Sequence record: MN850601.1
Length of the DNA: 64,000 nucleotides
Direction: 5' to 3' (one strand)
Origin: Escherichia phage inny
The notes under the pieces are model-generated. The model saw only the letters and a list, made by a program, of their open reading frames with translations, was not told where the DNA came from and made no database searches. This document shows, piece by piece, positions 22,830 to 40,663 of this stretch (its first letter is position 1; every line of letters starts with the position of its first letter). A program made the translations under genes and the position numbers.

Positions 22830-23990
22830 TTAGTAAGAACGACCACCAAACACATACTCTGTGTAGTTTTTACGTTCTTTGTTTTTAATAACAACTTCAA
22901 TGTTGTTGCCTTTATCATCGGTGAACACAAAGTGATAACCGTCACCACCCATTGTACGGATGTGTTTTTCATCATACGTCAGCAAGATACGGTCTACACC
23001 CCAGTAGTAGTCACCTTCTTCATCTTTGTCTTCTACTGTAACGACCCCTTCCATTTCAGGAAGATGCTCCTCTCCTAGCTTATGGTCTACAGCTACAACA
23101 TAACGATTACCGCTAAACAAACCCTGTGCTGTCATACCGTCAATATCGGTATCTGCCGAAACATCTCCTGTACGATCTACACCGTTAACTTTCAGGAGTT
23201 TAACTTCTTTTGCAGCATAGCGGTGTTCAGTAATACTGATACCCATTAATGCAAGTGCATCAGAGAATTTGTCATTAGGGTAACGGTTAAGTTCTTCTAC
23301 TAGTGACTGAACAATATCAAAGTTCAAGTCCACGGAAAGATTATAAAGCGTTTCAAAATCTGGTAAAAAGGCTTTGTTCTCCAGATTTTTAGCCAGATAG
23401 TCATCCATAGTAGCTTTAGGTAGTTTCTTATAGCTAAAACTGTAGAAAATACGGCTAGGACGATTACGCAAAAATTCTGATACATAACCATCATTTTTAG
23501 TCAATACAAACAGCTTGTCATAGCCACCTACACCATCCAGCAGAGTAAGCAAACCATCCTGTGCATCTTTTTCAGCATACAGTTTATCAAATTCATCGAT
23601 CATAATCATCACAGGTTGTGTGATTTTAGACATAAAATTGATAAAGCCTTCGCCATTAAAAGCACTACCGATAGAAATAGTAGGAATACCCATTTCACGA
23701 AGAGCAGAAGACAGCATTTTAGCTTGCAAAGTTTTACCACTACCCTTCGTACCCTCAAGGAGAACACCTGTGTTTTTACCTTTGCGGCTAAGGAACGTCT
23801 TGATAATACGTTCTGATTTATCATCAGTATCACCGTATGTTACTGAAGGGACTTCCATATCGTTTTTAGGATACAGGAAGAACTCACCACTTTGAGTAAC
23901 ACCTACACCAAAAGTTCCTGCTGGAATTTCTTCAATATCTGTACCAGATTTCTGACGCAGGAAGATTTGATTGCCGAATACTGTAAACAT
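22830..23990 (-). CDS. AAA+ ATPase (classic AAA clade)
   Basis: 386 aa; Walker A GTKGSGKT, Walker B IMIDEFDK, LLTLLDG, FLRNRPSRIFYSF; paralog of 39536..40663. Confidence 0.75.
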   Translation of the reverse strand: MFTVFGNQIFLRQKSGTDIEEIPAGTFGVGVTQSGEFFLYPKNDMEVPSVTYGDTDDKSERIIKTFLSRKGKNTGVLLEGTKGSGKTLQAKMLSSALREMGIPTISIGSAFNGEGFINFMSKITQPVMIMIDEFDKLYAEKDAQDGLLTLLDGVGGYDKLFVLTKNDGYVSEFLRNRPSRIFYSFSYKKLPKATMDDYLAKNLENKAFLPDFETLYNLSVDLNFDIVQSLVEELNRYPNDKFSDALALMGISITEHRYAAKEVKLLKVNGVDRTGDVSADTDIDGMTAQGLFSGNRYVVAVDHKLGEEHLPEMEGVVTVEDKDEEGDYYWGVDRILLTYDEKHIRTMGGDGYHFVFTDDKGNNIEVVIKNKERKNYTEYVFGGRSY

Positions 23991-24010
23991 AGTTTTCTCC
24001 TCTATTTAAT

Positions 24011-24481
24011 TTAGTCAGATTCCCAAATGTTGTCTTTCTTAACCCACATTCGTTGATTATCTGAACCTCTATAACGTTTCGTTGTTGGTTGATTCATATC
24101 ATACTTACCATCTATCACTATGTCAACCAGTTTTTTAATTTTCTCTGGAATTTCTTCAAAAAGATATCCTGTATATAAGACAATATCTTTTTTGTTTCCA
24201 AAACAATCTCTTACCTTCTCAAGAACATACTCTACAGTGTCAATGTTCTCTTTGTCAAGAGGTTCACCACCTAAAACTGTTAATCCTTTAATGAAAGGTC
24301 GAGATAAATCTTCCAAGATAAGATCTAATGTTTCAGTAGTGAACTCTTGTCCGTAGTTATACGACCAGGCTTTCTGGTTAAAGCAGCCACGGCAACCGTG
24401 GCTACAACCGCTCACCCACAAAGAGCATCTTACACCATCACCGTTGAGCATGTCAACAGGTTCATATCCGGCGTAATTCAA
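24011..24481 (-). CDS. nrdG: anaerobic ribonucleotide reductase activating protein (radical SAM)
   Basis: 156 aa; LNGDGVRCSLWVSGCSHGCRGCFN (CxxxCxxC cluster); directly downstream of nrdD. Confidence 0.9.
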   Translation of the reverse strand: MNYAGYEPVDMLNGDGVRCSLWVSGCSHGCRGCFNQKAWSYNYGQEFTTETLDLILEDLSRPFIKGLTVLGGEPLDKENIDTVEYVLEKVRDCFGNKKDIVLYTGYLFEEIPEKIKKLVDIVIDGKYDMNQPTTKRYRGSDNQRMWVKKDNIWESD

Positions 24482-26277
24482 AAATGTTTCTCCCTTTCTA
24501 GTACCTCTTGCATTTTACCTTTATTATAAGGGCGAGAGTTAGGGGCAGAAAGGTATCCTGACACTCTTCTGATTACAGATATAGATTCTTCCTCATGATT
24601 GCCACAACTTGGACACTCGAAGCCTTTAGCTGTTGCCTTAAATTCACCATGAAAACCACATTTGAAACACTGATCTACAGGTTGGTTCACGCCAAAATAA
24701 GGAATTTTGTTGTAGGCATAATCTACAAGAGTTTCCAGTGCTTGCAAGTTATTTTTAAGGTTTGGTGTTTCTACATAACCTATGTTCCCACCGTTACTGA
24801 TTTGTGCAAAACCTTCCTCATAATCCCACTTTTGGAACGGGGTAGTGTGCATCCACACAGGTTGATGGAAAGAGTTTGTCAAGTAGTCACGATCAATAGA
24901 ACCAGGATAGCGATCATTTAATGCTTTGGCAAATTTATAGCACAAGGATTCTGCTGGTGTTCCATACAAACTAAAAGCTAAACCAGAACGTTCTTTAAAT
25001 GTGCCACAGATATCCTTCATATATTGAAGGATGTTTTTACCCATTGCTTTTGGATTGGTGTTACCTGGGTATAAAATCTCCATAGCTTCTGCTAAACCTA
25101 CATAACCGATACTAATAGAGGCATAACCACCTTCAAATAGTTTACCAATCTCTTCATTAGCTTCTAGTCGAGCTAAAGCCCCTTCCATAAACAATGTAGG
25201 GTTTTGAGATGCTTTGGTATGTCTAATACGGTTAACACGTAGCATATGTGCCTTATACGCCATCTCCATATGTTGTTCCAACAGTTCAGTAAATAAGATG
25301 CCCTTTTCACGGGACTCTGCTGCAATGATAGGTAAGTTTAAAGAAACTACGCCTAAGTTGAAACGACCATCATATTTTTCACCTTGCTCTGTTGCATAGT
25401 ATGACAAGAAGCTACGGCAACCCATGCTTGTGACGCGACCATCTGAAGATCCTGTAACTTCTTTATTTAAAGGTACAGAGATAAAATCAGGATAAATGCG
25501 TTCAGCACAACACTCCATTGCCAGTTGCTTCAAATCATAGTTTGGATCGCCAGCTTTCATGTTAACACCATCTTCCAAGAAGAAGATAACTTTAGGAAAC
25601 ACAGGAGTTACCCTATCTTTTCCCAATCCTTGTTTGTGCACCATTAGGTAGTTTTTAGTGATCATTCTACCAAAAGCAGAGGTATCCAAACCTAAACTAA
25701 TTGTTATAAAAGGTGACTGACCATTTACACTCATTAGAGTGTTCACCTGGTAGATTAAAGTTTGCATTGCATCATAGACCTGTTTATCTACCATACGCAT
25801 AGCAATATCATAATCGCCAACATCGGCATATATTTTATTAAAACTTGCTTTAACGTATTGACTAAGCCCAGTATCAACATGTGCACAAGTTTGTCCACCA
25901 TATTGGCTAGAAGCTACTGCTTGAATAATTTGAGTTAGGACAGTAGTCGCTACACCGATAGATTTTGGTTTTTCAATATGTGCATTACCAATACGGAAAC
26001 CGTTCTCAAGCATATCTTGGTAATTTACCAGGCAACAATTAGTTAAAGGTGAGAGTAAATAATCTAAATCGTGAATGTGACCATACCCACTTTTATGCCA
26101 TTCTGCCAGATCTTCCGGTAAAATATGGGTCATTGCCATGTGCTTGCTTAGGATACCTGCTAGTAAGTCTCGGTGAGTATTAACAATCATTGCAGGTTTG
26201 TTTGCATTTTCACGAGTAAATTCTTCGGATGTTTGTTCGAGGAATCCGATTACATCCTCATATAGTTTTTGGGTCAT
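24478..26277 (-). CDS. nrdD: anaerobic ribonucleoside-triphosphate reductase
   Basis: Track ORF trimmed to ATG (MTQKLYED...) with GGAGGA SD; C-terminal zinc ribbon CFKCGF...CPSCGN and glycyl-radical region IRRVSGYLSAPNSRPYNKGK. Confidence 0.92.
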   Translation of the reverse strand: MTQKLYEDVIGFLEQTSEEFTRENANKPAMIVNTHRDLLAGILSKHMAMTHILPEDLAEWHKSGYGHIHDLDYLLSPLTNCCLVNYQDMLENGFRIGNAHIEKPKSIGVATTVLTQIIQAVASSQYGGQTCAHVDTGLSQYVKASFNKIYADVGDYDIAMRMVDKQVYDAMQTLIYQVNTLMSVNGQSPFITISLGLDTSAFGRMITKNYLMVHKQGLGKDRVTPVFPKVIFFLEDGVNMKAGDPNYDLKQLAMECCAERIYPDFISVPLNKEVTGSSDGRVTSMGCRSFLSYYATEQGEKYDGRFNLGVVSLNLPIIAAESREKGILFTELLEQHMEMAYKAHMLRVNRIRHTKASQNPTLFMEGALARLEANEEIGKLFEGGYASISIGYVGLAEAMEILYPGNTNPKAMGKNILQYMKDICGTFKERSGLAFSLYGTPAESLCYKFAKALNDRYPGSIDRDYLTNSFHQPVWMHTTPFQKWDYEEGFAQISNGGNIGYVETPNLKNNLQALETLVDYAYNKIPYFGVNQPVDQCFKCGFHGEFKATAKGFECPSCGNHEEESISVIRRVSGYLSAPNSRPYNKGKMQEVLEREKHF

Positions 26278-26290
26278 TAATCCTCCGTGG

Positions 26291-26318
26291 AAAATAAAAG
26301 CCAGCATTAAGCTGGCTT
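26291..26318 (-). promoter_or_regulatory. stem-loop AAGCCAGC-N5-GCTGGCTT + T tract abutting nrdD RBS (terminator/attenuator)
   Basis: 8-bp perfect stem followed on minus strand by TTTTATTTT, about 14 nt upstream of nrdD ATG. Confidence 0.5.
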
Positions 26319-26366
26319 TAGGGTGGATCTTTATTTTAAATCTTTTTCGTAAGATTGTCCTTGATC

Positions 26367-27317
26367 TTAGTCAAGGTTTTTGGTAATACGTGTACAACCA
26401 TCAGAAGTCAAACCGTCAACTTGAGTTTCCCAAGTGCCATGAATATTTCGGAACAATGTTGTTACACCTTTTGGTTCATTAATAATGATTGCCATAACAA
26501 GTTTAGGATCGATAACAGACATAATCTTTTCCTCAATACCCTCTGTAATAACATTATTACGCACAATATTAATTACATCTTCTTGTACAGAAAGGGTACT
26601 TACGTTCTTAAGAGTATATACCTGCTGCGTAGTGTAAATGATACGAACATAACTTACAGAACGAGTAGGCACAGGTTTACGCGGTCGGCGAAAACGTGGT
26701 TTTGGTGAAGATTCAGTCTTACTTTCATTTTTTGAATAATACTCCTCAAACAGTTTAGTAAATGTTTTTACATCAACTACAAACCGATCTTTCCTATATG
26801 GAGAATTCTTATGTGCACCATTAATACCACTGTTTTCATCGAAGAAAGTAATGTTTTCTTCAGTTGAATATGTTAGATAATGGTTTGCATCTTTCCAATG
26901 TGGTTGTGGACAATGCGGATTACAAACGGAAAGCAGATAACTAATATCTTCTTCCGTTGCACTAGTATCCAAGAAACACGTATTATGCACAGTCAGTTCT
27001 ACTTTTGCAACCATATCCATTTCTTTATCCTCATTGGCAAGATATTCAGTACGAATAATCTCCAGAAAACCTTCAGGTGTTACTTCCATAAATGTGTATT
27101 CAGGGTGAAGTTCCATATATTCAAATCCACAACCATCTAATTGCTGTAGGAAGTTAGGATAGAAGAACAAGTCATTAACACTATGAATCAGATCATTGAT
27201 TTCTGCTTCAGATGTGTAACCAAAACTTTTGTGAATTGCTTCATTAAGAATATGCAGGATACCCATCTCTTCTGCTGCTTTTTTAACTTCCAGTTTATTA
27301 GCGTAAAATGCAATCAT
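26367..27317 (-). CDS. hypothetical protein
   Basis: 316 aa ORF. Confidence 0.55.
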   Translation of the reverse strand: MIAFYANKLEVKKAAEEMGILHILNEAIHKSFGYTSEAEINDLIHSVNDLFFYPNFLQQLDGCGFEYMELHPEYTFMEVTPEGFLEIIRTEYLANEDKEMDMVAKVELTVHNTCFLDTSATEEDISYLLSVCNPHCPQPHWKDANHYLTYSTEENITFFDENSGINGAHKNSPYRKDRFVVDVKTFTKLFEEYYSKNESKTESSPKPRFRRPRKPVPTRSVSYVRIIYTTQQVYTLKNVSTLSVQEDVINIVRNNVITEGIEEKIMSVIDPKLVMAIIINEPKGVTTLFRNIHGTWETQVDGLTSDGCTRITKNLD

Positions 27318-27334
27318 TATGTTCTCCTTCTAAA

Positions 27335-27769
27335 TTAGTTTAAAATTTCTTTGGCAATGGTAGAAGCAAGTTTTCCATCATATTGATTAGGATACTCTGC
27401 TTTAAGGTGTTTCATCATATCTGGCATTTTCTTGCCTGTCAAGGCAAATTCTTCAGCAATCGCTCGAAGGTCATCTTCAGATAGCATTTCTGGTAAATAT
27501 TTTTCCAGAGTGGTGATATCACGCATAGCTCGCTCACATTTGCTAATGGAAGCATTAACTTTCTTAAGTGAGTCTAGCTCCTCTTTAGCGTGTGCAATAC
27601 CAATCTTAACAATGTTAATCATAATATCATCTTCTGATTTATTTAGATTTGCCTTTTGAGTACGAGCAAGGTCAAACTCACCAATAATATTAGTTAACAA
27701 AGCAAAAGCACCCTTATCGGTTGTACGTGCTAAGATACGATCTGCTTTCATTTGTGTCACAATAGACAT
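27335..27769 (-). CDS. GatB/YqeY-domain protein
   Basis: 144 aa; KYLPEMLSEDDLRAIAEEF...MKHLKAEYPNQYDGKLASTIAKEIL resembles YqeY family. Confidence 0.65.
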   Translation of the reverse strand: MSIVTQMKADRILARTTDKGAFALLTNIIGEFDLARTQKANLNKSEDDIMINIVKIGIAHAKEELDSLKKVNASISKCERAMRDITTLEKYLPEMLSEDDLRAIAEEFALTGKKMPDMMKHLKAEYPNQYDGKLASTIAKEILN

Positions 27770-27781
27770 TCTATTCTCCTC

Positions 27782-28354
27782 TTATTTGCTAATGCTTTGA
27801 ATCTTATTTACAACACGGTTTATTGCCAGTGAAGCCCTAGGCTCCGCAATACCTGTTGCATAGATATAAGGATGACCTTTTGGAGACTCCCTTATACCGA
27901 ATGAACCTAATTCTAAACCATATTCATCTTCTACGTCAACCCCAATATTAGTGGGTACTAAATATGTTTTAACTCCATAATAAGTAGAGAAGAAACAGCG
28001 CATAGAGTTAGCATACTCTTCAATTGTAGCATCAGGGTAGAACTCAATCAACTCCAATTTCAAGAAAATATTAAAATGAGTATCATCTAAATTTTCTTCT
28101 GTACGGTAACATGGTGTTAGTGCCATATAAGGATTACCTGCTGCAAATTCAAAACCATCCTTCTCCATTTGCAGGAAAGATTGTTCTGCACTGGCTACAT
28201 AGTATTTACCGTTAGGATGCCCTAATGGGCGATCCTCTTTATTTTCTGGTAGTGTGTACGCCAGTATATCAGCATCCACGAGATATGGAACTTCCAACAT
28301 CTGTGCAAACCGACCATAGTAATCAATAGCTTGAGCTATTACTTCAACATTCAT
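27782..28354 (-). CDS. hypothetical protein (possible class II aaRS-like minimal catalytic core)
   Basis: 190 aa; YRTEENLDDTHFNIF (motif-2-like fRxE...HxxxF) and GLELGSFGIRE (motif-3-like); tentative. Confidence 0.5.
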   Translation of the reverse strand: MNVEVIAQAIDYYGRFAQMLEVPYLVDADILAYTLPENKEDRPLGHPNGKYYVASAEQSFLQMEKDGFEFAAGNPYMALTPCYRTEENLDDTHFNIFLKLELIEFYPDATIEEYANSMRCFFSTYYGVKTYLVPTNIGVDVEDEYGLELGSFGIRESPKGHPYIYATGIAEPRASLAINRVVNKIQSISK

Positions 28355-28602
28355 GAGCGACCTCCATTGCGGAATGCACGTTTAGTAATGTTCGACATAG
28401 TGATCAAATCTTGAAGCGTCATATCAGGAAAATGCTGTTCAAGAACACCTTCAACAGCGCCTACAATATCTGATAACTCGATAAGTTGCATCAGCTTGCA
28501 ATCTTGATCAATAGCATCCTGAAGTTCATAAAGCTCTTCTTGAATTTTAGCAATAGAACCATATTCCTCTTTGCTAATCTCCTTCAAATGATACCCTGCC
28601 AC
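28351..28602 (-). CDS. hypothetical protein (possible MazG-like all-alpha NTP pyrophosphohydrolase)
   Basis: 83 aa; EEL.EL.DA and E.V.E glutamate-rich helices; C-terminus resembles 56277..56594 product. Confidence 0.4.
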   Translation of the reverse strand: MAGYHLKEISKEEYGSIAKIQEELYELQDAIDQDCKLMQLIELSDIVGAVEGVLEQHFPDMTLQDLITMSNITKRAFRNGGRS

Positions 28603-28612
28603 TTTAACCCCC

Positions 28613-30349
28613 TTAGTTTACCAGTTTATTTATATCTGGTAAAAGATTTATTTCACCTAAAAAATCACCTTCACCTTCCTCTAACCAACTCTCATATGCT
28701 TGTGCATGATTATAGTTACCATCAAAAGAATCTGCAACAAATTTTTCTACAGCTTTTCGAGATGTGCCAGTGCCAAATACACCAAGTTTAATACCATTGA
28801 TCGGTAAAGTGGTGCTTGTTGGTACTTTCTCTGTTGCAACACGGTTAATATCTATAATCTCCTGTACGGTTGTGTTCCATTGTAAGCATTTAACACAACG
28901 GGTATGCGCTACATACAGTAGGTTTCGCTCTGCCTCTTCCAGTCCTATCCATTGACCAGTCTTTTTATCATAGTTGGAAGGAAAATCATTAGCAACAATA
29001 ACCTGATCCCACTCCAAACCTTTAGACTTGTGTGCTGTAGTCAGTGTGACTTTTGCTGTAGGAGAATTTCTATGCGTTCTAAGTGTATGTGCTATAGTGT
29101 TTGCCTTACCAGAAACTACGATGTTTAACAAGCGTTTAGCATCTGGATCAGCCTCTGCACACTCAACAAATTCATTCCAGTCTGCGTAAGGTAATACAGT
29201 TTCATGTTTTACTTTCTCAATATCTCCTCTCCGAAGAGCATTAACACTATCTACCATAGAGATAAAATCCCTGGTATCTACGTTAATAATAATTTCTTCC
29301 CCATCTGCAATACGATCCATTGCCTCCATAAGCAAGGTTAAATTCTTGCGAAAGATGATAGTGTAAGGTTTTGTATAGTCTACAACATCTGATTTGTAGC
29401 TACCTACTACAGTATCAAAGCCTTTACCAACCAAAGGATGACGCAAAGGTTCTTTATCGCTTAAAATCATATTGGCAATGTTTGCCACTTTGGGGCCAAA
29501 ACGGAAGCAAGCAGTTAATGGAAGCTCTGCCCCATATGTAGAGGTTTCCTTCATCATATTTTGGCTTCCACGGAACTGGTAGATGCTCTGATATTCGTCA
29601 CCCACCACTACTACTTGTTTTGCAGATTTAGCATTTCGCAGAATAGACAAGAATGCAGGGTTAACATCCTGAAATTCATCACCAAAAATAATATCATAAC
29701 CAAGATCAGCACCAGATAATTCAAACAATTTTACATAGGTATCATGCGTCATCAAAGTATCTGTATTAGGATCGATGCGCTCTCGCCACAATTGTTTTGC
29801 ATACTTAACTACTTCTGTAATTAGTTTGTGTTCGTTAATACCTTTTCTTTTAATATCTGCAAGATGTACACTAGGAAAATGTTTACGGCTGATAAAAGGA
29901 TCATCCGAAAATTCAAACTTACCTACGGTTTGCTTGATCATTAAACCAATCATAGCACGAGTTAAAAGTGTTTTCCCTCGTTTATCAATAAGATTATTAA
30001 TCTTAAATTTCTTTGCTATCTCACTACCTGTACCTGCAACGTTAACATACTGTCCTTCTGGTCGTGACAGTTTTGCACGTAAACGATGATCCAGGAATTG
30101 ATAGCAAATAGAATGCAATGTACGGCATTCTACATTTAGTGGCATCTTACGTCGTGCTTCTTCTGCCATGCTTTTATTGAAAGCTAAGTAAAGAATGCGA
30201 TCTTCTGTACTGTTAGCCAGCAAATAAAGTGTTGACGTTTTGCCTGATCCAGATTTAGCTTGGATAGTTAAAAAGCGATGGTCTGGAAAAGCCTCCTTAA
30301 TAGCTGTTTGCTCTTCTGTTGGAGTGAAGCTCAACTCTTTCTTAGCCAT
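28613..30349 (-). CDS. UvrD/Rep-family superfamily 1 DNA helicase
   Basis: Track ORF trimmed to ATG (MAKKELSF...); Walker A AKSGSGKTS, motif II FGDEFQDVN. Confidence 0.8.
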   Translation of the reverse strand: MAKKELSFTPTEEQTAIKEAFPDHRFLTIQAKSGSGKTSTLYLLANSTEDRILYLAFNKSMAEEARRKMPLNVECRTLHSICYQFLDHRLRAKLSRPEGQYVNVAGTGSEIAKKFKINNLIDKRGKTLLTRAMIGLMIKQTVGKFEFSDDPFISRKHFPSVHLADIKRKGINEHKLITEVVKYAKQLWRERIDPNTDTLMTHDTYVKLFELSGADLGYDIIFGDEFQDVNPAFLSILRNAKSAKQVVVVGDEYQSIYQFRGSQNMMKETSTYGAELPLTACFRFGPKVANIANMILSDKEPLRHPLVGKGFDTVVGSYKSDVVDYTKPYTIIFRKNLTLLMEAMDRIADGEEIIINVDTRDFISMVDSVNALRRGDIEKVKHETVLPYADWNEFVECAEADPDAKRLLNIVVSGKANTIAHTLRTHRNSPTAKVTLTTAHKSKGLEWDQVIVANDFPSNYDKKTGQWIGLEEAERNLLYVAHTRCVKCLQWNTTVQEIIDINRVATEKVPTSTTLPINGIKLGVFGTGTSRKAVEKFVADSFDGNYNHAQAYESWLEEGEGDFLGEINLLPDINKLVN

Positions 30350-30350
30350 T

Positions 30351-30827
30351 TCAACCTCTCTTAATTTGTTTAACAAGCATAGGAACAAAATCTCGTTTTA
30401 AAATTTGTTCAATAATATGATCAGGTAGCTGTTGGAAATTATAATTAAAAGCTACTGTCTCACCTTTAGGTGTTTCTACCCGCACATATAACATGTTACG
30501 AAGTTTATCCACTTGTGCTGTATATTCTAAACCATGTAATTGATGCATTGCAAACATCAAGTCATCAGTTTCAGTTTGGAATCTATCATTTGCTTGCATT
30601 AAGGACAAGGTAAAAGGTAGATTTTCCCTAAGAGCCACCTTCTTAGGAACTAGTGAAGGAAAATACTCACCAATAACTTCCTGTGTAAGCTGGATACACT
30701 CTTTTTCAAGTTGGTTTTGTTCCTTAAGTTCACAAACACTTTTTTGTAAAGTGTTAACCTCTTTTTGCAAAGCTGCTAGTTGAGCACTTAACTTTCTTTT
30801 TTGATTACGACCAAAACGTTTAGACAT
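30351..30827 (-). CDS. hypothetical protein
   Basis: 158 aa; N-terminal coiled coil. Confidence 0.55.
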   Translation of the reverse strand: MSKRFGRNQKRKLSAQLAALQKEVNTLQKSVCELKEQNQLEKECIQLTQEVIGEYFPSLVPKKVALRENLPFTLSLMQANDRFQTETDDLMFAMHQLHGLEYTAQVDKLRNMLYVRVETPKGETVAFNYNFQQLPDHIIEQILKRDFVPMLVKQIKRG

Positions 30828-30835
30828 ATTTCCCC

Positions 30836-31351: not shown

Positions 31352-31372
31352 TATATTTTCCTTATTGGTTTG

Positions 31373-32102: not shown

Positions 32103-32103
32103 A

Positions 32104-32817: not shown

Positions 32818-32818
32818 T

Positions 32819-33301: not shown

Positions 33302-33569
33302 CTGATTGATCCTTCACATTGCTCTTGGCATACACAGGAATAACATCATGGTGATCTTTATTACTTTCGTCTGTTAAAGCCCAAAACAACTTACCTGCCG
33401 GATGTTTAAAGATGTAAGCAATAGGTTCCTCTTCCTGTGCCTCTTTGCTACGGATGCCATCCCGCCAGGCAAGCCAAGTGTAGATCATCATCTCTTGACG
33501 TTCTTCTTCATTAGGCCACAGATGGGGTAGAAAGTTTTTATCAAACCATTGCTTAAATTCTTCAGTCAT
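33288..33569 (-). CDS. hypothetical protein
   Basis: 93 aa ORF. Confidence 0.5.
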   Translation of the reverse strand: MTEEFKQWFDKNFLPHLWPNEEERQEMMIYTWLAWRDGIRSKEAQEEEPIAYIFKHPAGKLFWALTDESNKDHHDVIPVYAKSNVKDQSDDNV

Positions 33570-33579
33570 AGTCTACTCC

Positions 33580-33744
33580 TTAGCGTACAAAATTAACTTC
33601 TGCTTCTTTCAGCTTTGACACTTCTACATAACCACCATGATCATCTTTAATCCATTCTTTTCCTTTACGGATGATAACAGGATATGTAGAGTGAGTAAGT
33701 TTAGGTACAGATCTTTTTGTTTTAGTGATAGAAATGTTTTGCAT
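33580..33744 (-). CDS. small hypothetical protein (about 54 aa)
   Basis: Below ORF-track size cut-off; ATG preceded by AAGGAG; MQNISITKTKRSVPKL...; coordinates approximate. Confidence 0.35.
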   Translation of the reverse strand: MQNISITKTKRSVPKLTHSTYPVIIRKGKEWIKDDHGGYVEVSKLKEAEVNFVR

Positions 33745-33804
33745 AGTAATCTCCTTAGTAAACTTTACATAGAGTTTAGATTATTTAGTAGGTAGAGTCA
33801 ATAA

Positions 33805-34071
33805 CTAATTACTGTTAGATCTGTATTCTGTCTTCCATTCACAATGGTAAACTTCAACAGGTTCTAACTTCCAATGTTCAGGAACTAATTCAGGGCAATA
33901 TCTACAAAAGAGAAATAGATAGATAACTAAGACAGGTATTAAATAGTAAAATGGTATACGATCATAACCATACTTACGAGATAACATGTAGACATATAGA
34001 TAGGGTATAACAATTAATCCTATAACTATAAGTAAGAAGAGAAGTATAAACCTTAGTGTAGTAACACCCAT
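33805..34071 (-). CDS. small membrane protein
   Basis: 88 aa, two hydrophobic helices. Confidence 0.5.
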   Translation of the reverse strand: MGVTTLRFILLFLLIVIGLIVIPYLYVYMLSRKYGYDRIPFYYLIPVLVIYLFLFCRYCPELVPEHWKLEPVEVYHCEWKTEYRSNSN

Positions 34072-34235
34072 AGCATTCTCCTATACAGTAATATACTCTG
34101 TTCCTGCCCCTCCATGAGTGACAGGAACAATATCTATAGAGAATACTAACTCGCTTCGCTCGTCACCTTTCAGGTTTAGGGTAGCATGTTTTTCTGAAAA
34201 AGTCAATACTCTCCACAAAACTTTACAAAATACTT

Positions 34236-34508
34236 TTACATAGGTACAACAGAGTCTGTTTTGAAGTCGTACATATGATTTACACCTGTGATTTTTGACA
34301 TAGAGATTGCACGTTTAGCACCTGCAATTACCTGGTCTGTCTTCTTAATCTCTTCACGGAACTTACGTACAGTTAAAGAGAAGAAACGATGATCCATCCA
34401 TTGACGATTCACACGATCACGCTTGAAGTGACGGAAATCTTCAATCTGTTTATTGCGCAATCGGCGCAGTACATGCAATAGTTTATAGTAAGGGTGTTTA
34501 TTTTTCAT
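34236..34508 (-). CDS. hypothetical basic protein
   Basis: 90 aa, Arg/Lys-rich. Confidence 0.5.
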   Translation of the reverse strand: MKNKHPYYKLLHVLRRLRNKQIEDFRHFKRDRVNRQWMDHRFFSLTVRKFREEIKKTDQVIAGAKRAISMSKITGVNHMYDFKTDSVVPM

Positions 34509-34511
34509 AAT

Positions 34512-34940
34512 TTATTCTCCAAATCGAAAATCGTCAATATCATCAAACCATACACAATGGCGAGTCCTTTCTTTTTCTGTTGCAGACATTGTTTCAACAG
34601 CTTTAGGACTAAGCACAACAGGAATGTAACGAACAGGTCGTTCATAATAGTAGCCATACTTTTCTGTATTAGCTGCCTCAAAGACTTTACGGCGTTCTTC
34701 AAGATCTTCTATGGTGAATCCTACCATATAACCATCATGTTTGCTACCCCATCCTTCCTCACTTTCAACAATCGGGATATAAAAGCCGTTACGCGTCCCT
34801 GACGCTGGTTCTTCTTGAGCCTGAAGGCAAGCCTCCCATCCTGCTTTAAAGACGTTATAGAGCGATTTACGCACGTTATGAGTGCCGCTTTCGCTTGCTG
34901 GATAGAGTTCATTAAATTTGTCTTGGATTTGTTGTGTCAT
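34512..34940 (-). CDS. hypothetical protein
   Basis: 142 aa ORF. Confidence 0.55.
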   Translation of the reverse strand: MTQQIQDKFNELYPASESGTHNVRKSLYNVFKAGWEACLQAQEEPASGTRNGFYIPIVESEEGWGSKHDGYMVGFTIEDLEERRKVFEAANTEKYGYYYERPVRYIPVVLSPKAVETMSATEKERTRHCVWFDDIDDFRFGE

Positions 34941-35083
34941 ACTCGCCCCTTAGTGATTATTTGACCAGCTAAACAAATAGCTTGTAGTACAATAAAGAAG
35001 TAGCCTAATTTTACACTACCCAATACCCAGAATGCAATGTTTGCAAACAAACAAAAAGCAATATTAAGTCTAAAGAATAACAT

Positions 35084-35284
35084 TTAATCCCCTTCATATT
35101 TAGGTAAAGGCATATATGCCACAATAGGAGGGTAATCAAAGTGAAAATGATGGTTCACCACAATAATCTTACCAGACATACTTTTATGCACTTCACAATA
35201 CCCTTTTCCACCATCTTCCATTACCACCACATACTCACCTAGTGGGATATCGTATGGGTCTTCTACTTTTACCCATTCTGTCAT
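35084..35284 (-). CDS. hypothetical protein
   Basis: 66 aa ORF. Confidence 0.45.
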   Translation of the reverse strand: MTEWVKVEDPYDIPLGEYVVVMEDGGKGYCEVHKSMSGKIIVVNHHFHFDYPPIVAYMPLPKYEGD

Positions 35285-35550
35285 TTTGGAAACACCTCTT
35301 GTCCATCTTCATGCATTTGTAGTAAAGTTTCACAGATTTCATACACATCTTGATATGTTACAACTGAGAGATCAGATTCTTGATCTTCGACAAGCATAGC
35401 ACAAAGAGCTTTAATGTCAATACCTTTACAATGTTCCGTAGCTATACGGTACATTTCACCATCCTCCCAAACAATTGGTTGCGGAAGCAAAACGTCTGTA
35501 CCATCTTCACAAGTTACAATGTAGTCTGCAATATTATCACGAATTTTCAT
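35281..35550 (-). CDS. hypothetical protein
   Basis: 89 aa ORF. Confidence 0.5.
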   Translation of the reverse strand: MKIRDNIADYIVTCEDGTDVLLPQPIVWEDGEMYRIATEHCKGIDIKALCAMLVEDQESDLSVVTYQDVYEICETLLQMHEDGQEVFPK

Positions 35551-35804
35551 TGTACTACCCCCTTAAATCCAGATGTGCTGCCAGTTTTAACTTTTGCTTT
35601 AAGATGTTCCAACTCTACCATAGGTGTTGCTACTTGTATAGGATTTTCCTCAACCTCATGGATATAATATTCATAATAAGCATACTTACCAATAGAGTGC
35701 AGATACTTAATTGCATGTTCAGGCGAATCTGCTTCGACATACCCTAAATCTTTTGTGGTACGACCTTCGCAATCACCTTCGGTAGTTACATGATAAAGTG
35801 TCAT
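35547..35804 (-). CDS. hypothetical protein
   Basis: 85 aa ORF. Confidence 0.5.
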   Translation of the reverse strand: MTLYHVTTEGDCEGRTTKDLGYVEADSPEHAIKYLHSIGKYAYYEYYIHEVEENPIQVATPMVELEHLKAKVKTGSTSGFKGVVQ

Positions 35805-35953
35805 AAAACCTCCTCATAGTAAGGTAAAGCCTTGATCAGTTGTTCTGAAGTGCCATTTTGTACCCACGTAACACCATTGTCAACAGAAACATACCCTTTT
35901 TTGTCAATAAATTTACGCAGACAGCCAGTGAACTTATTTTTGTAGATAACCAT
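35801..35953 (-). CDS. small hypothetical protein (about 50 aa)
   Basis: Below track cut-off; GGAG upstream of ATG; stop overlaps next start (ATGA); coordinates approximate. Confidence 0.35.
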   Translation of the reverse strand: MVIYKNKFTGCLRKFIDKKGYVSVDNGVTWVQNGTSEQLIKALPYYEEVL

Positions 35954-35962
35954 GTTTACTCC

Positions 35963-37066
35963 TTAATCAATTTTTTCACTAACAAAATTTTTTATATTTT
36001 CATAATCTTCTAGATTATATGTTTCTGTATATCCATCCGGTAGCCACTCTTTTAAGCATAAAGAGCGGTTAAAACATTTTTTAACTTCTTTCTCCAAAGC
36101 GAAAATAGTAGCATAATCTCCACTGAAACTGTCAAGTAGATAATGCTTAAACATGCTGTTTTTACTTTGCTCTTTGATTCTACGATCAATATCTACCGTA
36201 ATCCCTGCTTTCAAGCAGGTATAAAACGGAGAAACCAATTTTTGTATATAAAAACACCAATTTGATTGTTGGTTTTCGGTGTACGGAATTTCTTTTACTC
36301 TTTTTTGCTTTTTAACATTCATCTCTGTAAAGGGTAATGCTTTATAGAGTGATGTTTGACCGTGGCGTGTCTCTACAGAAAGAACTCCCATATCAACAAA
36401 CATATTTATAATATTGCGTACCTGACGATCACTAACCATTCCAATATTAGCTAATGTTTTTTGAGTAGCGTAACATTCTTGCCCTTGTTCATTGAATCCA
36501 GCTATATAGCTATAGATTTCAACGGCTGGCAGTGTAGCGGTGTATTCATTACCAGATGGTGAATACCATTTTTTAAACATTTTCCATTCTGTAGGGGGAA
36601 GCTGTTCAGGAACAGCTTTAACAGTAGATACTTGCTCTGTCTGTGGCTTTTCTGCATTTACAGAGGCTTTCGCTTCTCTTGGGGGAGTAATATGTGCATC
36701 TGTGAGAGGTAGCGCACGTAATTTTAAAGGACGTTTTGGAATTCGTTCTCCGACCTCTTCTAAAAGACCGATTTTAATCATAATACCAATCAATTCATTA
36801 ACTGTCTTACGGCTACAGCTACAAACTTTACTTAACTTCGTTTGTGTTTCAAAACATATTCCCCCTGATTTATCCCAATCTGAAACATAGCAATATAATT
36901 TTTGCATTTCTACACTAAACTTAACTTTTCCACCACCAACACTTGAGGAGTAGATAAACTCAATCTCACAAAAGTAATGAGGTATATTCAAAGTTCGGTC
37001 TTTAATTTCTCCTGTTTGTTTATCAACATACTGGTATTTTTCACGAATCAATTTAATTTTAGACAT
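35963..37066 (-). CDS. putative DNA-binding protein with two helix-turn-helix-like segments
   Basis: Track ORF trimmed to ATG (MSKIKLIREK...) with AGGAG SD; HTH-like SRKTVNELIGIMIKIGLL and SDRQVRNIINMFVDMGVL. Confidence 0.5.
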   Translation of the reverse strand: MSKIKLIREKYQYVDKQTGEIKDRTLNIPHYFCEIEFIYSSSVGGGKVKFSVEMQKLYCYVSDWDKSGGICFETQTKLSKVCSCSRKTVNELIGIMIKIGLLEEVGERIPKRPLKLRALPLTDAHITPPREAKASVNAEKPQTEQVSTVKAVPEQLPPTEWKMFKKWYSPSGNEYTATLPAVEIYSYIAGFNEQGQECYATQKTLANIGMVSDRQVRNIINMFVDMGVLSVETRHGQTSLYKALPFTEMNVKKQKRVKEIPYTENQQSNWCFYIQKLVSPFYTCLKAGITVDIDRRIKEQSKNSMFKHYLLDSFSGDYATIFALEKEVKKCFNRSLCLKEWLPDGYTETYNLEDYENIKNFVSEKID

Positions 37067-37103
37067 TAGAATAATCTCCTTATAAATCACGCTTAATGCG
37101 CTA

Positions 37104-37286
37104 CTAAAGTGAATGAGGATCATTTACCTTTTTTTGTTTGATATTCTCTGCTGCTTCAGTAATGATTTCTAACATCAAATCACTGACCATAATTTGCCTT
37201 TTCTTGGCTTCAGCAAATAAAACCTTGAAGATTTCAGGGTCAACGTGTAGGTAAGTGCGCGGAATTGGTTTCTTAGTTTCGCTCAT
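37104..37286 (-). CDS. ribbon-helix-helix (CopG/Arc-like) small DNA-binding protein
   Basis: Track ORF trimmed to ATG (MSETKKPIPRTYLHVDPEIFKVL...) with AAGGAG SD; beta-strand + two helices pattern. Confidence 0.45.
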   Translation of the reverse strand: MSETKKPIPRTYLHVDPEIFKVLFAEAKKRQIMVSDLMLEIITEAAENIKQKKVNDPHSL

Positions 37287-37299
37287 AGTTTTCTCCTTA

Positions 37300-37653
37300 T
37301 TACATCCACAGATTATGGAAATACTTAGCAAACAAAATACGACCTTCTAAACGATCTTGCCGCTGTTTTTCATTAACTTCTTCTGGTGGAGTTGAGTCCT
37401 TAAAAGAAGACTCCATTTTTTCAAGAATTTCTAACCAGTGTTCTGCTGCTCGTTCTTCCATATAAGGTAGATAGTCACCTTTAGCGTGTGGGTACATCCG
37501 ACGAAGTAACCCACTAGGAATTTTAACATTGTTTGTGGCTATCACTTTTGCACGATATGCAGAAAGTGCATTGTAGATCAGTTTACTTAGTGTCACATCT
37601 AGATCAAGAAGATCACTCTCTTCAAATTGAATTTCATCGTGTACAATTTTCAT
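37300..37653 (-). CDS. hypothetical protein
   Basis: 117 aa ORF. Confidence 0.5.
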   Translation of the reverse strand: MKIVHDEIQFEESDLLDLDVTLSKLIYNALSAYRAKVIATNNVKIPSGLLRRMYPHAKGDYLPYMEERAAEHWLEILEKMESSFKDSTPPEEVNEKQRQDRLEGRILFAKYFHNLWM

Positions 37654-37664
37654 ATCACTCTCCT

Positions 37665-37955
37665 TTATAGTAAAACACGTTTTGCACTGCTTGGTGCATT
37701 GTCGAACATGTTTATCACTTTGTCAAGTTTGTGTATTAACTCGTTCGTAATGTTCCACTCTTTGTATGATCTCCATTGTTTCTTATTCTCACCTACCTGG
37801 TGTAAAACTTTGATTGGTGCATTCAAACGTACATTGCGTTCTTTGTCCTCTTCAAAAGAGGCTAACCATTTTTCGTTATGCCCATGAACAGCAATAATAA
37901 TGCCAAAACCATCAAAAGTTTCTGTAATATTCTTAGTTGCTAGTGTGATGTTCAT
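37665..37955 (-). CDS. hypothetical protein
   Basis: 96 aa; first gene of leftward block. Confidence 0.5.
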   Translation of the reverse strand: MNITLATKNITETFDGFGIIIAVHGHNEKWLASFEEDKERNVRLNAPIKVLHQVGENKKQWRSYKEWNITNELIHKLDKVINMFDNAPSSAKRVLL

Positions 37956-38014
37956 ATCTAACCTCTTTTGTTACGATGCACACAGAGTACCAGAAATTAA
38001 TTTCAGATCAAGTA

Positions 38015-38042
38015 TTGACATACTGTTTTATTGTGCTAATCT
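38015..38042 (+). promoter_or_regulatory. sigma70-like promoter (TTGACA-N16-TAATCT) at strand-switch region
   Basis: Consensus -35 with spaced -10-like hexamer about 35 nt upstream of first rightward gene. Confidence 0.4.
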
Positions 38043-38074
38043 TAATGCATACACAAATGAGAGGAGATAAACGA

Positions 38075-38626
38075 ATGCAAAACATCGATCTGACTTGGAT
38101 AGAAGCCAAAGAAGCAATGTTAAAAGGCAAACGCGTTAAACATAAATACTTCTGCGAAGGAGAATGGTTTGAAATGTGTAACCGATCCATTGTAGATGAA
38201 AAAGGGAATGACATGCAACAATGGTTCAAAAATGAAATTTGGCAGGGAACAGGTTGGTCTATAGTTGAAGAGCAGCCTAGCTCAAGCGCACTGTTTAGCC
38301 CTATTATGTATCGCGTTATCGGTGCTTTAGTTGTTGATCACGGGATTGCAGTGGAAAAAGAATGCTGGGAAGAGGTATCTTTTTTCAACCTGGCTTCTTA
38401 TGCAAAAAGCCATATGCACTTGTTTGAAGAAGGGGATGAATTTGTTCTTCGTATGCGATATGGCAAAGAATTCAGATTACCACTTGATAACGATGTAGAC
38501 ACTGTTGTAAAATGGTTAGCAGAGCATTACGCTTACGATGCAATTTGTGGTCGCAGCTTCGGCAACGAACGCTGGGACATGATTTGTGAAAAATATGATT
38601 TTGAGCCGGAGTACGGAGTTTTATAA
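38075..38626 (+). CDS. hypothetical protein
   Basis: Track ORF 37976..38626 trimmed to ATG (MQNIDLTW...) with GAGGAG SD. Confidence 0.55.
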   Translation: MQNIDLTWIEAKEAMLKGKRVKHKYFCEGEWFEMCNRSIVDEKGNDMQQWFKNEIWQGTGWSIVEEQPSSSALFSPIMYRVIGALVVDHGIAVEKECWEEVSFFNLASYAKSHMHLFEEGDEFVLRMRYGKEFRLPLDNDVDTVVKWLAEHYAYDAICGRSFGNERWDMICEKYDFEPEYGVL

Positions 38627-38877
38627 TGTTAAGTATCAAACCTAAAATGATAACAGAAGACGAAGCAGACTTTATTTTCAAATGTGGACGTGTATGGAGA
38701 GAATTCACAAAAGGGAATGAAGTGGTGGTTGTTGTCGAACACAAGATATCTATCCAGGATCTGTTTGGACAATATGTTGATGTTATTAAATTAGGTATTG
38801 ACAAGGGTTTAGTTGAGGTGTTAACATTAGATCAAGTTGAAGCAGAGCACCTCGACAAAGTAGTGGTTGAATTTTAA
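38626..38877 (+). CDS. hypothetical protein
   Basis: 83 aa ORF. Confidence 0.5.
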   Translation: MLSIKPKMITEDEADFIFKCGRVWREFTKGNEVVVVVEHKISIQDLFGQYVDVIKLGIDKGLVEVLTLDQVEAEHLDKVVVEF

Positions 38878-38897
38878 AATACAGATGGGAGAAAGGT

Positions 38898-39071
38898 ATG
38901 AGTTTCTTTGTTACAGTATTTATGGCTATCTGGATTGTAGTCTCACTCGTTCTTTTCCTGGTGGGTTGTCTGGAAGAGATTAAGAAAGCGGTTATTTGCG
39001 GTTTCTTTGGCTTTATTATCTCTCCTGCCTGGATGTGGTTCTTCATTATGATTGGTTTCCTTAAAAGGTAA
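38898..39071 (+). CDS. small membrane protein (57 aa)
   Basis: Below track cut-off; GGGAGAAAGGT upstream of ATG; MSFFVTVFMAIWIVVSLVLFLVGCLEE... Confidence 0.4.
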   Translation: MSFFVTVFMAIWIVVSLVLFLVGCLEEIKKAVICGFFGFIISPAWMWFFIMIGFLKR

Positions 39072-39085
39072 GTGAGGAATAAAGA

Positions 39086-39523
39086 ATGAGTAAAACAAAC
39101 GCAATCGCAGATAAAGCAACTGATGTACTTCTGAACATGGTTAACGTCACTATTCAAACAATGAGTGATGTTGTAGAGTTTGGAAAACAACAAATTCCAG
39201 AAGTAATTCATCAATTATTAATGTGGAAAGCAGTATCCGCAGGTTTATGGCAACTTTTTAGTATTTGCTTTATGTTTATTACTTTTATTGTTGTGCGGAA
39301 CCTCATAAAAGCAATTAAAGATAAAGAATGTCTGTGGTCACGAGATCGCTATGGTGAGGTATCTGCTTTGCCTATTGTTGGTCTTGTTGTCTGTGCTTTC
39401 TTTTTCTTTTTAGGATTTGTTATTTTCTTTTCGAATTTCGATTGGCTAAAAATTATTATTGCACCAAAAGTGTATCTGATTGAATTTGCTGCTGATTTAA
39501 TTCGTTCATCTCAACAAAGATAA
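39086..39523 (+). CDS. membrane protein (two TM helices)
   Basis: 145 aa; GAGGAA SD; hydrophobic segments. Confidence 0.55.
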   Translation: MSKTNAIADKATDVLLNMVNVTIQTMSDVVEFGKQQIPEVIHQLLMWKAVSAGLWQLFSICFMFITFIVVRNLIKAIKDKECLWSRDRYGEVSALPIVGLVVCAFFFFLGFVIFFSNFDWLKIIIAPKVYLIEFAADLIRSSQQR

Positions 39524-39535
39524 AAGGGGTTTAAA

Positions 39536-40663
39536 ATGAAATACACGATTTATGGTGATATTGTAAGTGTAAATAAAGATATGGGCGTGGAATCTAACTA
39601 TCTTCCACCTGGATTCTATACTGTTAGTCGTGATCCCCTTGGCAATTACTTTTTAAGCCGTGGTAATCTAACAGGTGTACCGGATGTTCTGTATGGTGAA
39701 ACAGAAAAACGAGCAAATCACGTTATTCGTACATTCCATCGCCGGAGTGCACAAGGTAAAAACACAGGTTTGCTCCTGACAGGCACTAAGGGCAGTGGTA
39801 AAACTATGTTAGCCAAACTCATTAGTCGTGACCTTGTAGAAGAAGGTATTCCAACTATTATGGTTACTCAAGCCTACAGCGATGCTAATTTCATTGAACT
39901 TATTAGCAAGATCACCGACAAAGCAGTGATTATTTTTGACGAGTTTGATAAAGTATATGAGAAGAAACAAGATCAAGAAGCACTTCTCACTTTGTTAGAT
40001 GGTACTGGCAGTGGTAATAAACTGTTTATTCTAACTAAAAACAGTGGCTTTATCTCTGAATTCTTTCTAAATCGTCCTAGTCGTGTGTTTTATAATTTTA
40101 ATTATGATAAAATCTCACTAGAAACTATGATTGACTATTTAGATAAAAACCTGGATAACAAAGCACACTTTGATAATTTCCAAAGGCTTTGGGATGTAAG
40201 TTTAGAGTTGTCCTTTGATGTGATCCAAGGTATAGTAGAAGAACTTAATTTCTACCCTGATTTATCCTTTAAAGAATGCATCTCTATGATGGGCGTTTCT
40301 TTGGGTGGTGGTAATAAGTGGGATATCAGCAGCGTTGTTATTAATGGGAAACTTCAGAAAGTTAGCTGGGTATCTAGTTGGCATAACTTCACACCTGCAA
40401 TCTTTTTAGGTGGCTCGTGCACACTAGACGTGTACTTGTCATCTCCAAGTGATGCAGACTCTAAAGAAGCCCTTGCTAATAGCTCTTACGTGGTTTTTGA
40501 TGATGAAGGAGATGCTCGAATTCCATTGAATGCGACAAAAATGAAAGCAGATCTTATTACAGGCGGTAAAATCGTTGTGTTTAGTGATGATCCAGAAGAT
40601 TCTTTCCGTATTGTTCTGGAACCAACTATCACCAATGGTGCAACTTTGGCAAGCGTGTTTTAA
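39536..40663 (+). CDS. AAA+ ATPase (classic AAA clade), paralog of 22830..23990
   Basis: 375 aa; Walker A GTKGSGKT, Walker B IIFDEFDK, LLTLLDG, FLNRPSRVFYNF. Confidence 0.75.
   Translation: MKYTIYGDIVSVNKDMGVESNYLPPGFYTVSRDPLGNYFLSRGNLTGVPDVLYGETEKRANHVIRTFHRRSAQGKNTGLLLTGTKGSGKTMLAKLISRDLVEEGIPTIMVTQAYSDANFIELISKITDKAVIIFDEFDKVYEKKQDQEALLTLLDGTGSGNKLFILTKNSGFISEFFLNRPSRVFYNFNYDKISLETMIDYLDKNLDNKAHFDNFQRLWDVSLELSFDVIQGIVEELNFYPDLSFKECISMMGVSLGGGNKWDISSVVINGKLQKVSWVSSWHNFTPAIFLGGSCTLDVYLSSPSDADSKEALANSSYVVFDDEGDARIPLNATKMKADLITGGKIVVFSDDPEDSFRIVLEPTITNGATLASVF

Follow-up and report, generated by a model that had tools for sequence, protein, structure and literature searches.

Two AAA ATPase genes in the phage inny window

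Within a 64,000-nucleotide stretch of Escherichia phage inny (sequence record MN850601.1; hereafter the window) an original prediction had placed two diverged classic-AAA ATPase paralogs on opposite strands, at 22830-23990 (minus) and 39536-40663 (plus). Two open reading frames (ORFs), here called ORF A and ORF B, exist exactly there (Table 1). BLASTP aligns residues 2-253 of A with residues 3-256 of B at 47% identity and 70% positives (E 1e-81), and by this comparison the two are true paralogs, homologous far beyond chance. Walker A GTKGSGKT and the stretch LLTLLDG were found by regular expression in ORF A and ORF B alike, as had been proposed; the Walker B pattern (I/M)IFDEFDK, also proposed for both, fits B only, given that A has MIMIDEFDK. 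The second region of homology reads FLRNRPSRIFYSF in ORF A and FFLNRPSRVFYNF in ORF B, so that A follows the suggested pattern FL(R/N)NRPSR(I/V)FY(S/N)F and B is off by one substitution. Both paralogs retain all catalytic residues and are predicted to be catalytically intact.

The alignment of A and B begins at residue 2-3 and is gap-free there. Identity per segment is 30% in the N-terminal beta-domain, 38% in helix alpha0, 57% in the AAA core, 45% in the lid and about 20% in the C-terminal domain. Because the N-terminal, core and lid segments all align with higher identity, the divergence is located in the C-terminal ~130 residues; the description of the pair as having different N-terminal domains of ~90 residues had it backwards. 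Both divergent C-termini nonetheless match one PHROG profile end to end.

Positions 22000-41000 of the window share ~98% nucleotide identity with phi92-like E. coli myoviruses by megablast, with 90-93% of the query covered (Nernie, Paula, alia, muut, PaulScherrer/Bas60 and phi92; genus Justusliebigvirus, subfamily Stephanstirmvirinae). Both genes have carried an ATPase label in phi92-like genomes since the phi92 record: in the phi92 RefSeq entry ORF A is gene_190 and ORF B is gene_221, both named 'ATPase' with the note 'predicted AAA domain fold; putative ATPase or Zn metalloprotease'. The ORF B ortholog in Bas60, bas60_0109, is labelled 'FtsH-like protease'. The FtsH-like and Zn metalloprotease labels were ruled out, since neither ORF contains an HExxH or HxxEH motif (regular expression) or a peptidase domain (Pfam). 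A transmembrane (TM) segment or BCS1_N domain was likewise found in neither ORF (Pfam; model of B), and no AAA_3 (MoxR) match was obtained for either (Pfam).

Table 1 Features of ORF A, ORF B and their surroundings in the window.
Feature	Position	Strand	Remarks
ORF A	22830..23990	-	386 aa, A-type paralog; 99.5% identical to phi92 gene_190; phrog_2376 E 3.6e-104
ORF A N-terminal small beta-domain (aa 1-55)	23826..23990	-	30% identical to B counterpart
ORF A Walker A GTKGSGKT (aa 80-87, Lys86)	23730..23753	-	regular expression; homologous columns invariant in 71-sequence alignment
ORF A Walker B MIMIDEFDK (Asp132, Glu133)	23583..23609	-	regular expression
ORF A sensor-1 Asn166 and second region of homology FLRNRPSRIFYSF (Arg177, Arg180)	23436..23495	-	
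ORF A C-terminal beta-domain and tail (aa 254-386)	22833..23231	-	differs from B, ~20% identity
ORF B	39536..40663	+	375 aa, B-type paralog; phi92 gene_221 ortholog; phrog_2376 E 6.6e-108
ORF B N-terminal small beta-domain (aa 1-55)	39536..39700	+	model strands 3-6, 9-12, 18-20, 27-32, 38-43; pLDDT 86-95
ORF B Walker A GTKGSGKT (aa 83-90, Lys89)	39782..39805	+	regular expression, 71-sequence alignment
ORF B Walker B VIIFDEFDK (Asp135, Glu136; both family-invariant)	39926..39952	+	regular expression, alignment
ORF B sensor-1 Asn169 and second region of homology NRPSRVFYNF (Arg180, Arg183, both invariant)	40040..40099	+	
ORF B C-terminal beta-domain (aa 254-366) and flexible tail (aa 367-375, ...ATLASVF)	40295..40660	+	
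Terminator-like hairpin AAAGGAGGCGAAAGCCTCCTTT, 9 bp and T-run	22802..22823	-	6 nt past ORF A stop
Terminator-like hairpin AAAACCCGCTCCGGCGGGTTTT, strong	40679..40700	+	15 nt past ORF B stop
Candidate sigma-70-like site TTGACA-17-TATGAT (11/12)	24098..24126	-	in nrdG 3' part, ~100 nt upstream of ORF A
PRTase_3 and HAD hydrolase genes	20916..21773, 21766..22440	-	
Phosphatase-Macro fusion	20207..21040	-	277 aa; Macro domain (Pfam E 3e-7) as C-terminal half; PHROG label of Macro part 'phosphatase'
CapR-homology/T5orf172 gene	40738..41910	+	phi92 label 'endonuclease'
NADAR-domain gene	41911..42462	+	E 2e-36; 1.2 kb downstream of ORF B
Family A DNA polymerase, T7 gp4-like primase-helicase and Ter cluster	2768..5347, 5844..7616, 13081..16894	-	
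Glycosyltransferase-like ORFs (n = 2)	7898..8842, 9815..10501		
nrdD	24478..26307	-	609 aa
UvrD-like helicase	28613..30388	-	591 aa
HTH_36 ORF	35963..37123	-	386 aa

A viral family of stand-alone AAA proteins

Both proteins belong to PHROG 2376 ('ATPase', category 'other'), in which residues 1-376 of ORF A match profile positions 2-359 of 363 and residues 1-367 of ORF B match positions 1-357. The next-best PHROG is the clamp-loader family phrog_168 (E 4e-5 for A, 1e-8 for B), so the ORFs fall into a generically named group and not into one of the well-known phage families whose role is established. PF00004 was the main Pfam result for both, at 29.4 bits (A) and 38.9 bits (B) against a cut-off of 21.2 and over profile positions 1-107/110 of 131. 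AAA_5 was marginal (A, E 0.036 and 14.5 bits; B, E 1.3e-4 and 22.4 bits with a cut-off of 22, far under the PF00004 score of B), and NCBIfam and PADLOC scans of both ORFs returned only sub-threshold P-loop matches.

By tblastn, the family is present in 379 of 50,697 phage records. Its range covers Stephanstirmvirinae and jumbo phages of Erwinia, Serratia, Yersinia, Xanthomonas, Agrobacterium and Acinetobacter among phages of Gram-negative hosts, further Salmonella phage 7-11, Aeromonas Lahexavirus and Proteus phages, and also Herelleviridae of Bacillus, Enterococcus and Lactobacillus, large Staphylococcus and Lactococcus siphoviruses, Microbacterium phages and crAss-like phages. Named members include phi92 gp190/gp221, Salmonella phage 7-11 gp125, Bcp1_221 and phiEF24C gp215. 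A profile search of 1.84 billion representatives (50%-identity clusters) gave 8873 matches at E<=1e-3 and 3343 at E<=1e-30, nearly all full-length at 350-400 aa, and the statement that such ATPases are uncommon in phages was therefore too strong. With just 39 family loci in 185,579 species-representative genomes, almost all of them on contigs of metagenome-assembled genomes, these searches mark the family as essentially viral and phage-restricted, and as neither rare nor new to databases.

A survey of the best 150 representatives for domain fusions gave a single long match with an insert, the metagenomic family member P0224 (727 aa), in which LAGLIDADG/Hom_end lies inside the AAA module; the insert is of the type of an intein homing endonuclease. 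The N-terminal extension of P0244 had no Pfam match, and P0253, P0212 and P0241 gave AAA-type P-loop matches only (Pfam) and no informative fusion.

The assignment to the classic AAA clade was examined in an alignment of 71 family sequences (residue numbers in B numbering). Invariant columns are G83, G86, G88 and K89 of Walker A, D135 and E136 of Walker B, K139, Q147, D155-G156 of 'LLTLLDG', the sensor-1 residue N169, R180 and R183, and F227-D228, where the third lid helix begins. The two arginines belong to a family consensus NRPGR(I/V) that aligns with p97 'lRPGRl', the 'RPGR' of classic AAA proteins. Only F227, D228, E235, E236, N238 and Y240 are invariant or near-invariant in the lid, and no conserved arginine is found there at sensor 2; a lid without this arginine was reportedly named by Erzberger and Berger in 2006 as a mark of the classic clade. 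When the family profile was compared with PDB sequences, p97/Cdc48 D2 came top (E 2.5e-13), followed by VAT, AFG2/SPATA5, NVL, Rix7 and BCS1 (8e-8), and classic-clade proteins rank first both by profile and by fold. Given that motifs, profile and fold agree, the classic-AAA assignment of both ORFs is supported, as the original prediction had it.

One classic feature, the beta2-alpha2 helix insert that bears pore loop 1, is not clearly present. Against p97, the profile alignments show a deletion of ~5-7 residues at pore loop 1 and another of ~12 at pore loop 2. The beta2-alpha2 loop has ~6 residues (B 111-116, TQAYSD), compared with ~5-7 more in p97, and most members keep a semi-conserved [W/F/Y/H]-x-G.

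In an AlphaFold2 model of ORF B (predicted local distance difference test score, pLDDT, 89.3; predicted template modelling score, pTM, 0.73) residues 3-43 form a five-stranded N-terminal mini-domain, 56-72 helix alpha0, 77-190 a canonical AAA core and 195-252 a four-helix lid; the C-terminal domain (262-363) is beta-rich, and the tail (367-375) has low confidence. The family is thus built from a small N-terminal beta-domain, alpha0, an AAA core of the classic clade and a four-helix lid, with a single AAA module of ~175 residues plus lid. A C-terminal beta-domain peculiar to the family follows, and then a short, flexible tail with an aromatic or hydrophobic end. Foldseek against BFVD recovered the complete architecture in PHROG 2376 members, after which giant-virus 'mitochondrial chaperone BCS1' proteins rank; for the C-terminal beta-domain no relative was found in PDB. 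The extreme C-terminus follows a pattern of ~[F/Y]-[N/D]-[Y/W/F]-x-x-A-[F/L/Y]-COOH, with F, Y, L, V, I or W as last residue in 67 of the 71 sequences and A, L or V as penultimate residue in 51. Conservation in a part of the model with pLDDT <50 suggests that the tail is a docking peptide.

Setting and origin of the pair

Both genes lie in the surroundings first described for them, with A between nrdD-nrdG and the PRTase/Ter cluster and B in the rightward block, as its fifth ORF, past a divergent region near 37.2-38 kb. A distance of 15.5 kb separates them; they lie on opposite strands and have separate terminators. The start of ORF A, preceded by the ribosome-binding site GAGGAG, is 20 nt past the nrdG stop, and a hairpin with T-run follows the stop of ORF A; the gene is thus the final one of an nrdD-nrdG-ATPase string. 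The sigma-70-like site upstream of ORF A (Table 1) remains a candidate because promoter-like sites are no commoner in the region than in shuffles (56 found against 65.1 expected).

Downstream of ORF A follow, in order, genes for a HAD hydrolase, PRTase_3 (ComF-like, Ter-associated) and the phosphatase-Macro fusion. The gene upstream of ORF B encodes a 145-aa product with 2 TM segments, and the one just past ORF B encodes three CapR-homology/zinc-ribbon repeats with a T5orf172 (GIY-YIG-like) end, followed by a NADAR-domain protein. NADAR proteins reverse DNA ADP-ribosylation, and the two genes past ORF B may be a counter-defence gene of the anti-DarT type next to a mobile endonuclease.

Among isolates, the A-type occurs in Justusliebigvirus and Klebsiella phage phi1_175008 (75%) only. 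Phapecoctavirus has the B-type only, as a single copy in syntenic position (64% identical to ORF B), and a single copy is the rule in most other phages. A neighbour-joining tree (residues 1-253, Kimura distance, 100 bootstraps) separates the two copies into an A-group (bootstrap 100) and a B-group (100), next to an uncultured C-group (100); A+C has 73 and A+B+C+P0030 has 93. From these groupings the duplication is old, but internal to the Stephanstirmvirinae lineage. Both copies are also held by a diverged 151.5-kb metagenomic contig, in which the B-type (P0017) is 65% identical to ORF B and the A-type (P0035) stands in the order nrdD-nrdG-ATPase-...-PRTase_3-TerC-TelA; in another contig an A-like C-group copy sits in a B-like position. 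That both copies are kept with all catalytic residues argues for A and B being non-redundant in function.

In isolate phages the ATPase gene lies among small hypothetical genes of early type. The homolog of Salmonella phage 7-11 has an Srd-like sigma-70 decoy nearby, and Prs-like and NAMPT-like genes follow 3-5 kb downstream. A conserved adjacent partner, especially a membrane protein, was looked for and rejected, the neighbours in Phapecoctavirus, 7-11, Aeromonas 4_4572 and Bcp1 being unrelated and mostly non-membrane. For uncultured relatives we used the best 80 IMG/VR loci (448 relatives were confirmed among the first 600 pattern matches), in which ORFs were called and clustered by all-against-all BLASTP. 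Recurrent neighbours are all on the ATPase strand. The most frequent, at 17 of 80 loci, is a stand-alone Macro-domain protein (PHROG 335 'phosphatase') that aligns to the Macro part of the window ORF at 20207-21040, followed by RIIB (11/80), NAMPT (9/80; gap <100 nt in 5, at 74-95 nt), RIIA (8/80) and NMNAT-NUDIX (6/80). Metallophosphoesterase, GDSL, AhpD-like, SPFH and PNK families recur as well. The 19 most recurrent neighbour clusters include no replication or structural family, and no protease was found among recurrent neighbours.

Counted per ATPase lineage at 80% identity, a NAD/ADP-ribose neighbour is present in 12 of 52 and rII in 9 of 52. The same-strand string NMNAT-NUDIX - Macro - NAMPT - AAA ATPase recurs in environmental large phages (L023, L041, L050, L059, L064, L070, L075) and looks like a NAD+ salvage/ADP-ribose module with the ATPase as last gene. 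The neighbourhoods consistently indicate an early, accessory part of the genome devoted to host interaction; by guilt by association they point weakly to NAD+/ADP-ribose biology.

The window further encodes a family A DNA polymerase, a T7 gp4-like primase-helicase (Toprim and DnaB_C) and a Ter cluster with TerD, a vWA-TerF-like protein and TelA, to which the phi92 record adds an annotated TerC-like membrane protein. Two glycosyltransferase-like ORFs are also present (Table 1), with a weak TET-associated glycosyltransferase match among them. nrdD is a single unbroken ORF, compared with two pieces and a spliced variant annotated in phi92, and the UvrD-like helicase is shorter than its phi92 counterpart of 2775 nt (~924 aa), and PaulScherrer has the label 'intein-containing UvrD/Rep family helicase precursor'; because of these two differences, the window genome may be without an intervening element that is present in relatives. 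The HTH_36 ORF has a marginal MUG113/GIY-YIG-like C-terminus, and the corresponding phi92 stretch is annotated with small genes only. This ORF may be a mobile-element insertion and could contribute to the ~7% of the query left uncovered by the closest genomes.

Three further candidates were rejected. The HTH_36 ORF, at 386 aa as long as ORF A, is not a third ATPase paralog, having HTH_36 and marginal MUG113 instead. The phi92 record has a 'hypothetical tRNA' antisense within its ORF A ortholog (L001 7263-7350), but ARAGORN found no tRNA in 22000-41500 of the window. Ksap2 (Bas60_220, the KpAvs2 trigger) does not adjoin ORF B, whose Bas60 ortholog is bas60_0109.

Proposed role, alternatives and known systems

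We favour, with moderate confidence, the reading that ORF A and ORF B, two catalytically intact members of a phage-restricted family of stand-alone AAA ATPases, act as early, ring-forming protein remodelers whose C-terminal domain sets specificity. Because the trans-acting arginines (R180 and R183 in B) are invariant, ATP hydrolysis would need an oligomer, probably a ring-shaped one. Such an enzyme would remodel or take apart folded proteins or complexes, as BCS1, Trip13 and NSF do, more likely than thread them into a protease, given that both pore-loop segments are shortened and that BCS1, Trip13 and NSF-D2 are the closest structural relatives. The first suggestion, of unfoldases that may degrade host targets, finds no support with both pore-loop regions shortened against p97 and no HExxH motif or peptidase module. 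Docking of clients or partners would fall to the C-terminal beta-domain, which is poorly conserved, and to the aromatic tail, which is conserved. As the paralogs differ mainly in the C-terminal domain, A and B may serve different clients, and a role of this domain in specificity would explain both the position of the difference and the retention of both copies. Membership in an early, accessory host-interaction programme is suggested by the neighbours, that is, HAD, PRTase_3 and Macro by A, NADAR by B, and Macro, NAMPT, NMNAT-NUDIX and rIIA/rIIB in relatives.

Several points weigh against this reading. The [W/F/Y/H]-x-G kept in the shortened beta2-alpha2 loop would leave room for substrate threading. 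Promoter-like sites are not above shuffles, so early expression is argued from gene position alone. The neighbour links come from a biased sample of related, phylogenetically non-independent phages and may reflect mere co-location in accessory regions. Oligomeric state, substrate and timing of family members are all inferred, and the literature yielded no functional study of any PHROG 2376 member. Finally, Iyer et al. 2021 (PMC7824862) described jumbo-phage 'BCS1 orthologs', without accessions, that could be the PHROG 2376 family.

A more specific form of the remodeler reading, which we think improbable, ties the family to the NAD+/ADP-ribose genes as a counter-defence factor. The ATPase would dismantle oligomeric host immune assemblies, such as NAD-depleting or ADP-ribosylating effectors, or activate neighbouring enzymes of NAD salvage and de-ADP-ribosylation; the C-terminal domain and tail would pick the target, and A and B would address two host systems. 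The argument is guilt by association: 12 of 52 metagenomic lineages have Macro, NAMPT and NMNAT-NUDIX genes as neighbours of the ATPase, in the window A has PRTase_3, HAD and Macro beside it and B has NADAR, and Prs-like and NAMPT-like genes lie near the homolog of 7-11.

A and B might instead form one hetero-oligomeric ring with a single target, as Pex1/Pex6 and Yta10/Yta12 do. Both copies are kept over substantial divergence (P0017 and P0035 on one contig), conservation is highest in the two segments that hold the ring interfaces, the AAA core and the lid (57% and 45%), and both proteins keep all catalytic residues. We nevertheless consider such a joint ring unlikely, as the B-type alone suffices in Phapecoctavirus and single copies are usual elsewhere, the two genes are far apart on opposite strands with separate terminators, and the duplication is old, with an A-like C-group copy found in a B-like position.

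The proposal of Iyer et al. 2021 (PMC7824862) would make the family a BCS1-like assembly chaperone or translocase that folds, translocates or loads proteins in membrane-proximal virion morphogenesis, and the giant-virus BCS1 proteins that follow the family itself among BFVD neighbours fit this. We doubt it, because the BCS1_N domain and the transmembrane anchor are both absent, a beta-domain of 45 residues forms the N-terminus, p97-type proteins outscore BCS1 by sequence, the genes sit among small early or accessory genes outside structural modules, and no membrane-protein neighbour is conserved in the isolate loci compared.

A DNA-replication accessory ATPase, that is, a clamp loader, helicase loader or initiator-like switch acting on DNA or the replisome, would agree with the weak matches to the clamp-loader PHROG (phrog_168) and to DnaC-like loaders, with weak NCBIfam matches to Hda, IstB and RuvB (all far under cut-offs), and with the names 'DNA replication protein DnaC' and 'putative DNA replication protein' given to some relatives in their sources. 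The short beta2-alpha2 loop resembles a minimal clamp-loader core, and Iyer et al. (PMC7824862) reported an 'RFC-like loader without a detectable clamp' in PolA-type jumbo myoviruses. Such a role has little chance in our view: the T7-type replisome of this phage needs neither clamp nor loader, and no sliding clamp is annotated in the phi92 stretch examined. In place of a helical collar there is a beta-rich C-terminal domain, the second region of homology is RPGR-type with two arginines and not SRC, the sensor-2 arginine is absent, classic AAA proteins come first by profile and fold, and the recurrent neighbours include no replication gene.

The idea of an AAA partner for the vWA/Ter cluster (a MoxR-vWA-like pair) or of an FtsH-like protease is prompted by the vWA-TerF-like protein and Ter cluster of the window and by the GenBank labels, but is already contradicted by domain content (no HExxH motif, M41 peptidase domain, TM segment or MoxR match, AAA_5 reaching E 0.036 on ORF A), by the position of the vWA gene 8.3 kb from A as part of a TerD/TerF/TelA set, and by a family widespread in phages without vWA/Ter genes at the locus, and we regard it as highly improbable. 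The partnership with the vWA protein suggested at the outset finds no support for the same reasons. The original prediction thus rested on a real observation that it partly misdescribed; it was partly right, in recognizing classic-AAA-type paralogs, and overreached on rarity, on unfolding or degradation and on the vWA partner.

The finding is mostly ordinary, given that the genes have long been annotated as AAA ATPases and that few protein machines are as well known as the AAA fold. The family itself is large (thousands of 50%-identity clusters), nearly all viral and found in big phages of both Gram-negative and Gram-positive hosts. If the host-takeover or counter-defence remodeler proved true, a field in which small stoichiometric inhibitors and enzymes predominate would gain an ATP-driven class, and the A/B pair of the BASEL-collection phages (Bas60-62) would be a handy genetic entry point.

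Among known systems, the bacterial Trip13/Pch2 proteins of CBASS operons (PDB 6p8v) have no sequence-level family match to the phage proteins, which are without a HORMA partner and have an extra C-terminal domain. Clamp loaders of the T4 gp44/RFC type (phrog_168, the next PHROG match, E 1e-8 with B) have the compact AAA core and short beta2-alpha2 loop in common with the phage proteins, whereas the latter lack the helical collar and the SRC motif and belong to a phage with a PolA/T7-type replisome. BCS1, the mitochondrial AAA translocase of the folded Rieske protein, differs by its BCS1_N domain and membrane anchor, does not have the phage C-terminal beta-domain and tail, and is the more distant profile relative (E 8e-8, compared with 2.5e-13 for p97). 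The closest profile relatives are the classic unfoldases of the p97/Cdc48/VAT D2 type (AFG2, NVL, Rix7), with which the family shares Walker A and B, the 'LLTxxDG' alpha3 motif, the sensor-1 asparagine, the RPGR-type double arginine, an 'S-x-D'-type lid motif and the absence of a sensor-2 arginine. Compared with p97, the phage proteins have one AAA module, shortened pore loops, other N and C domains and a Walker A of GxKGSGKT in place of GPPGxGKT. ORF A and ORF B show no difference from PHROG 2376, the family to which they belong and whose name, 'ATPase', is generic.

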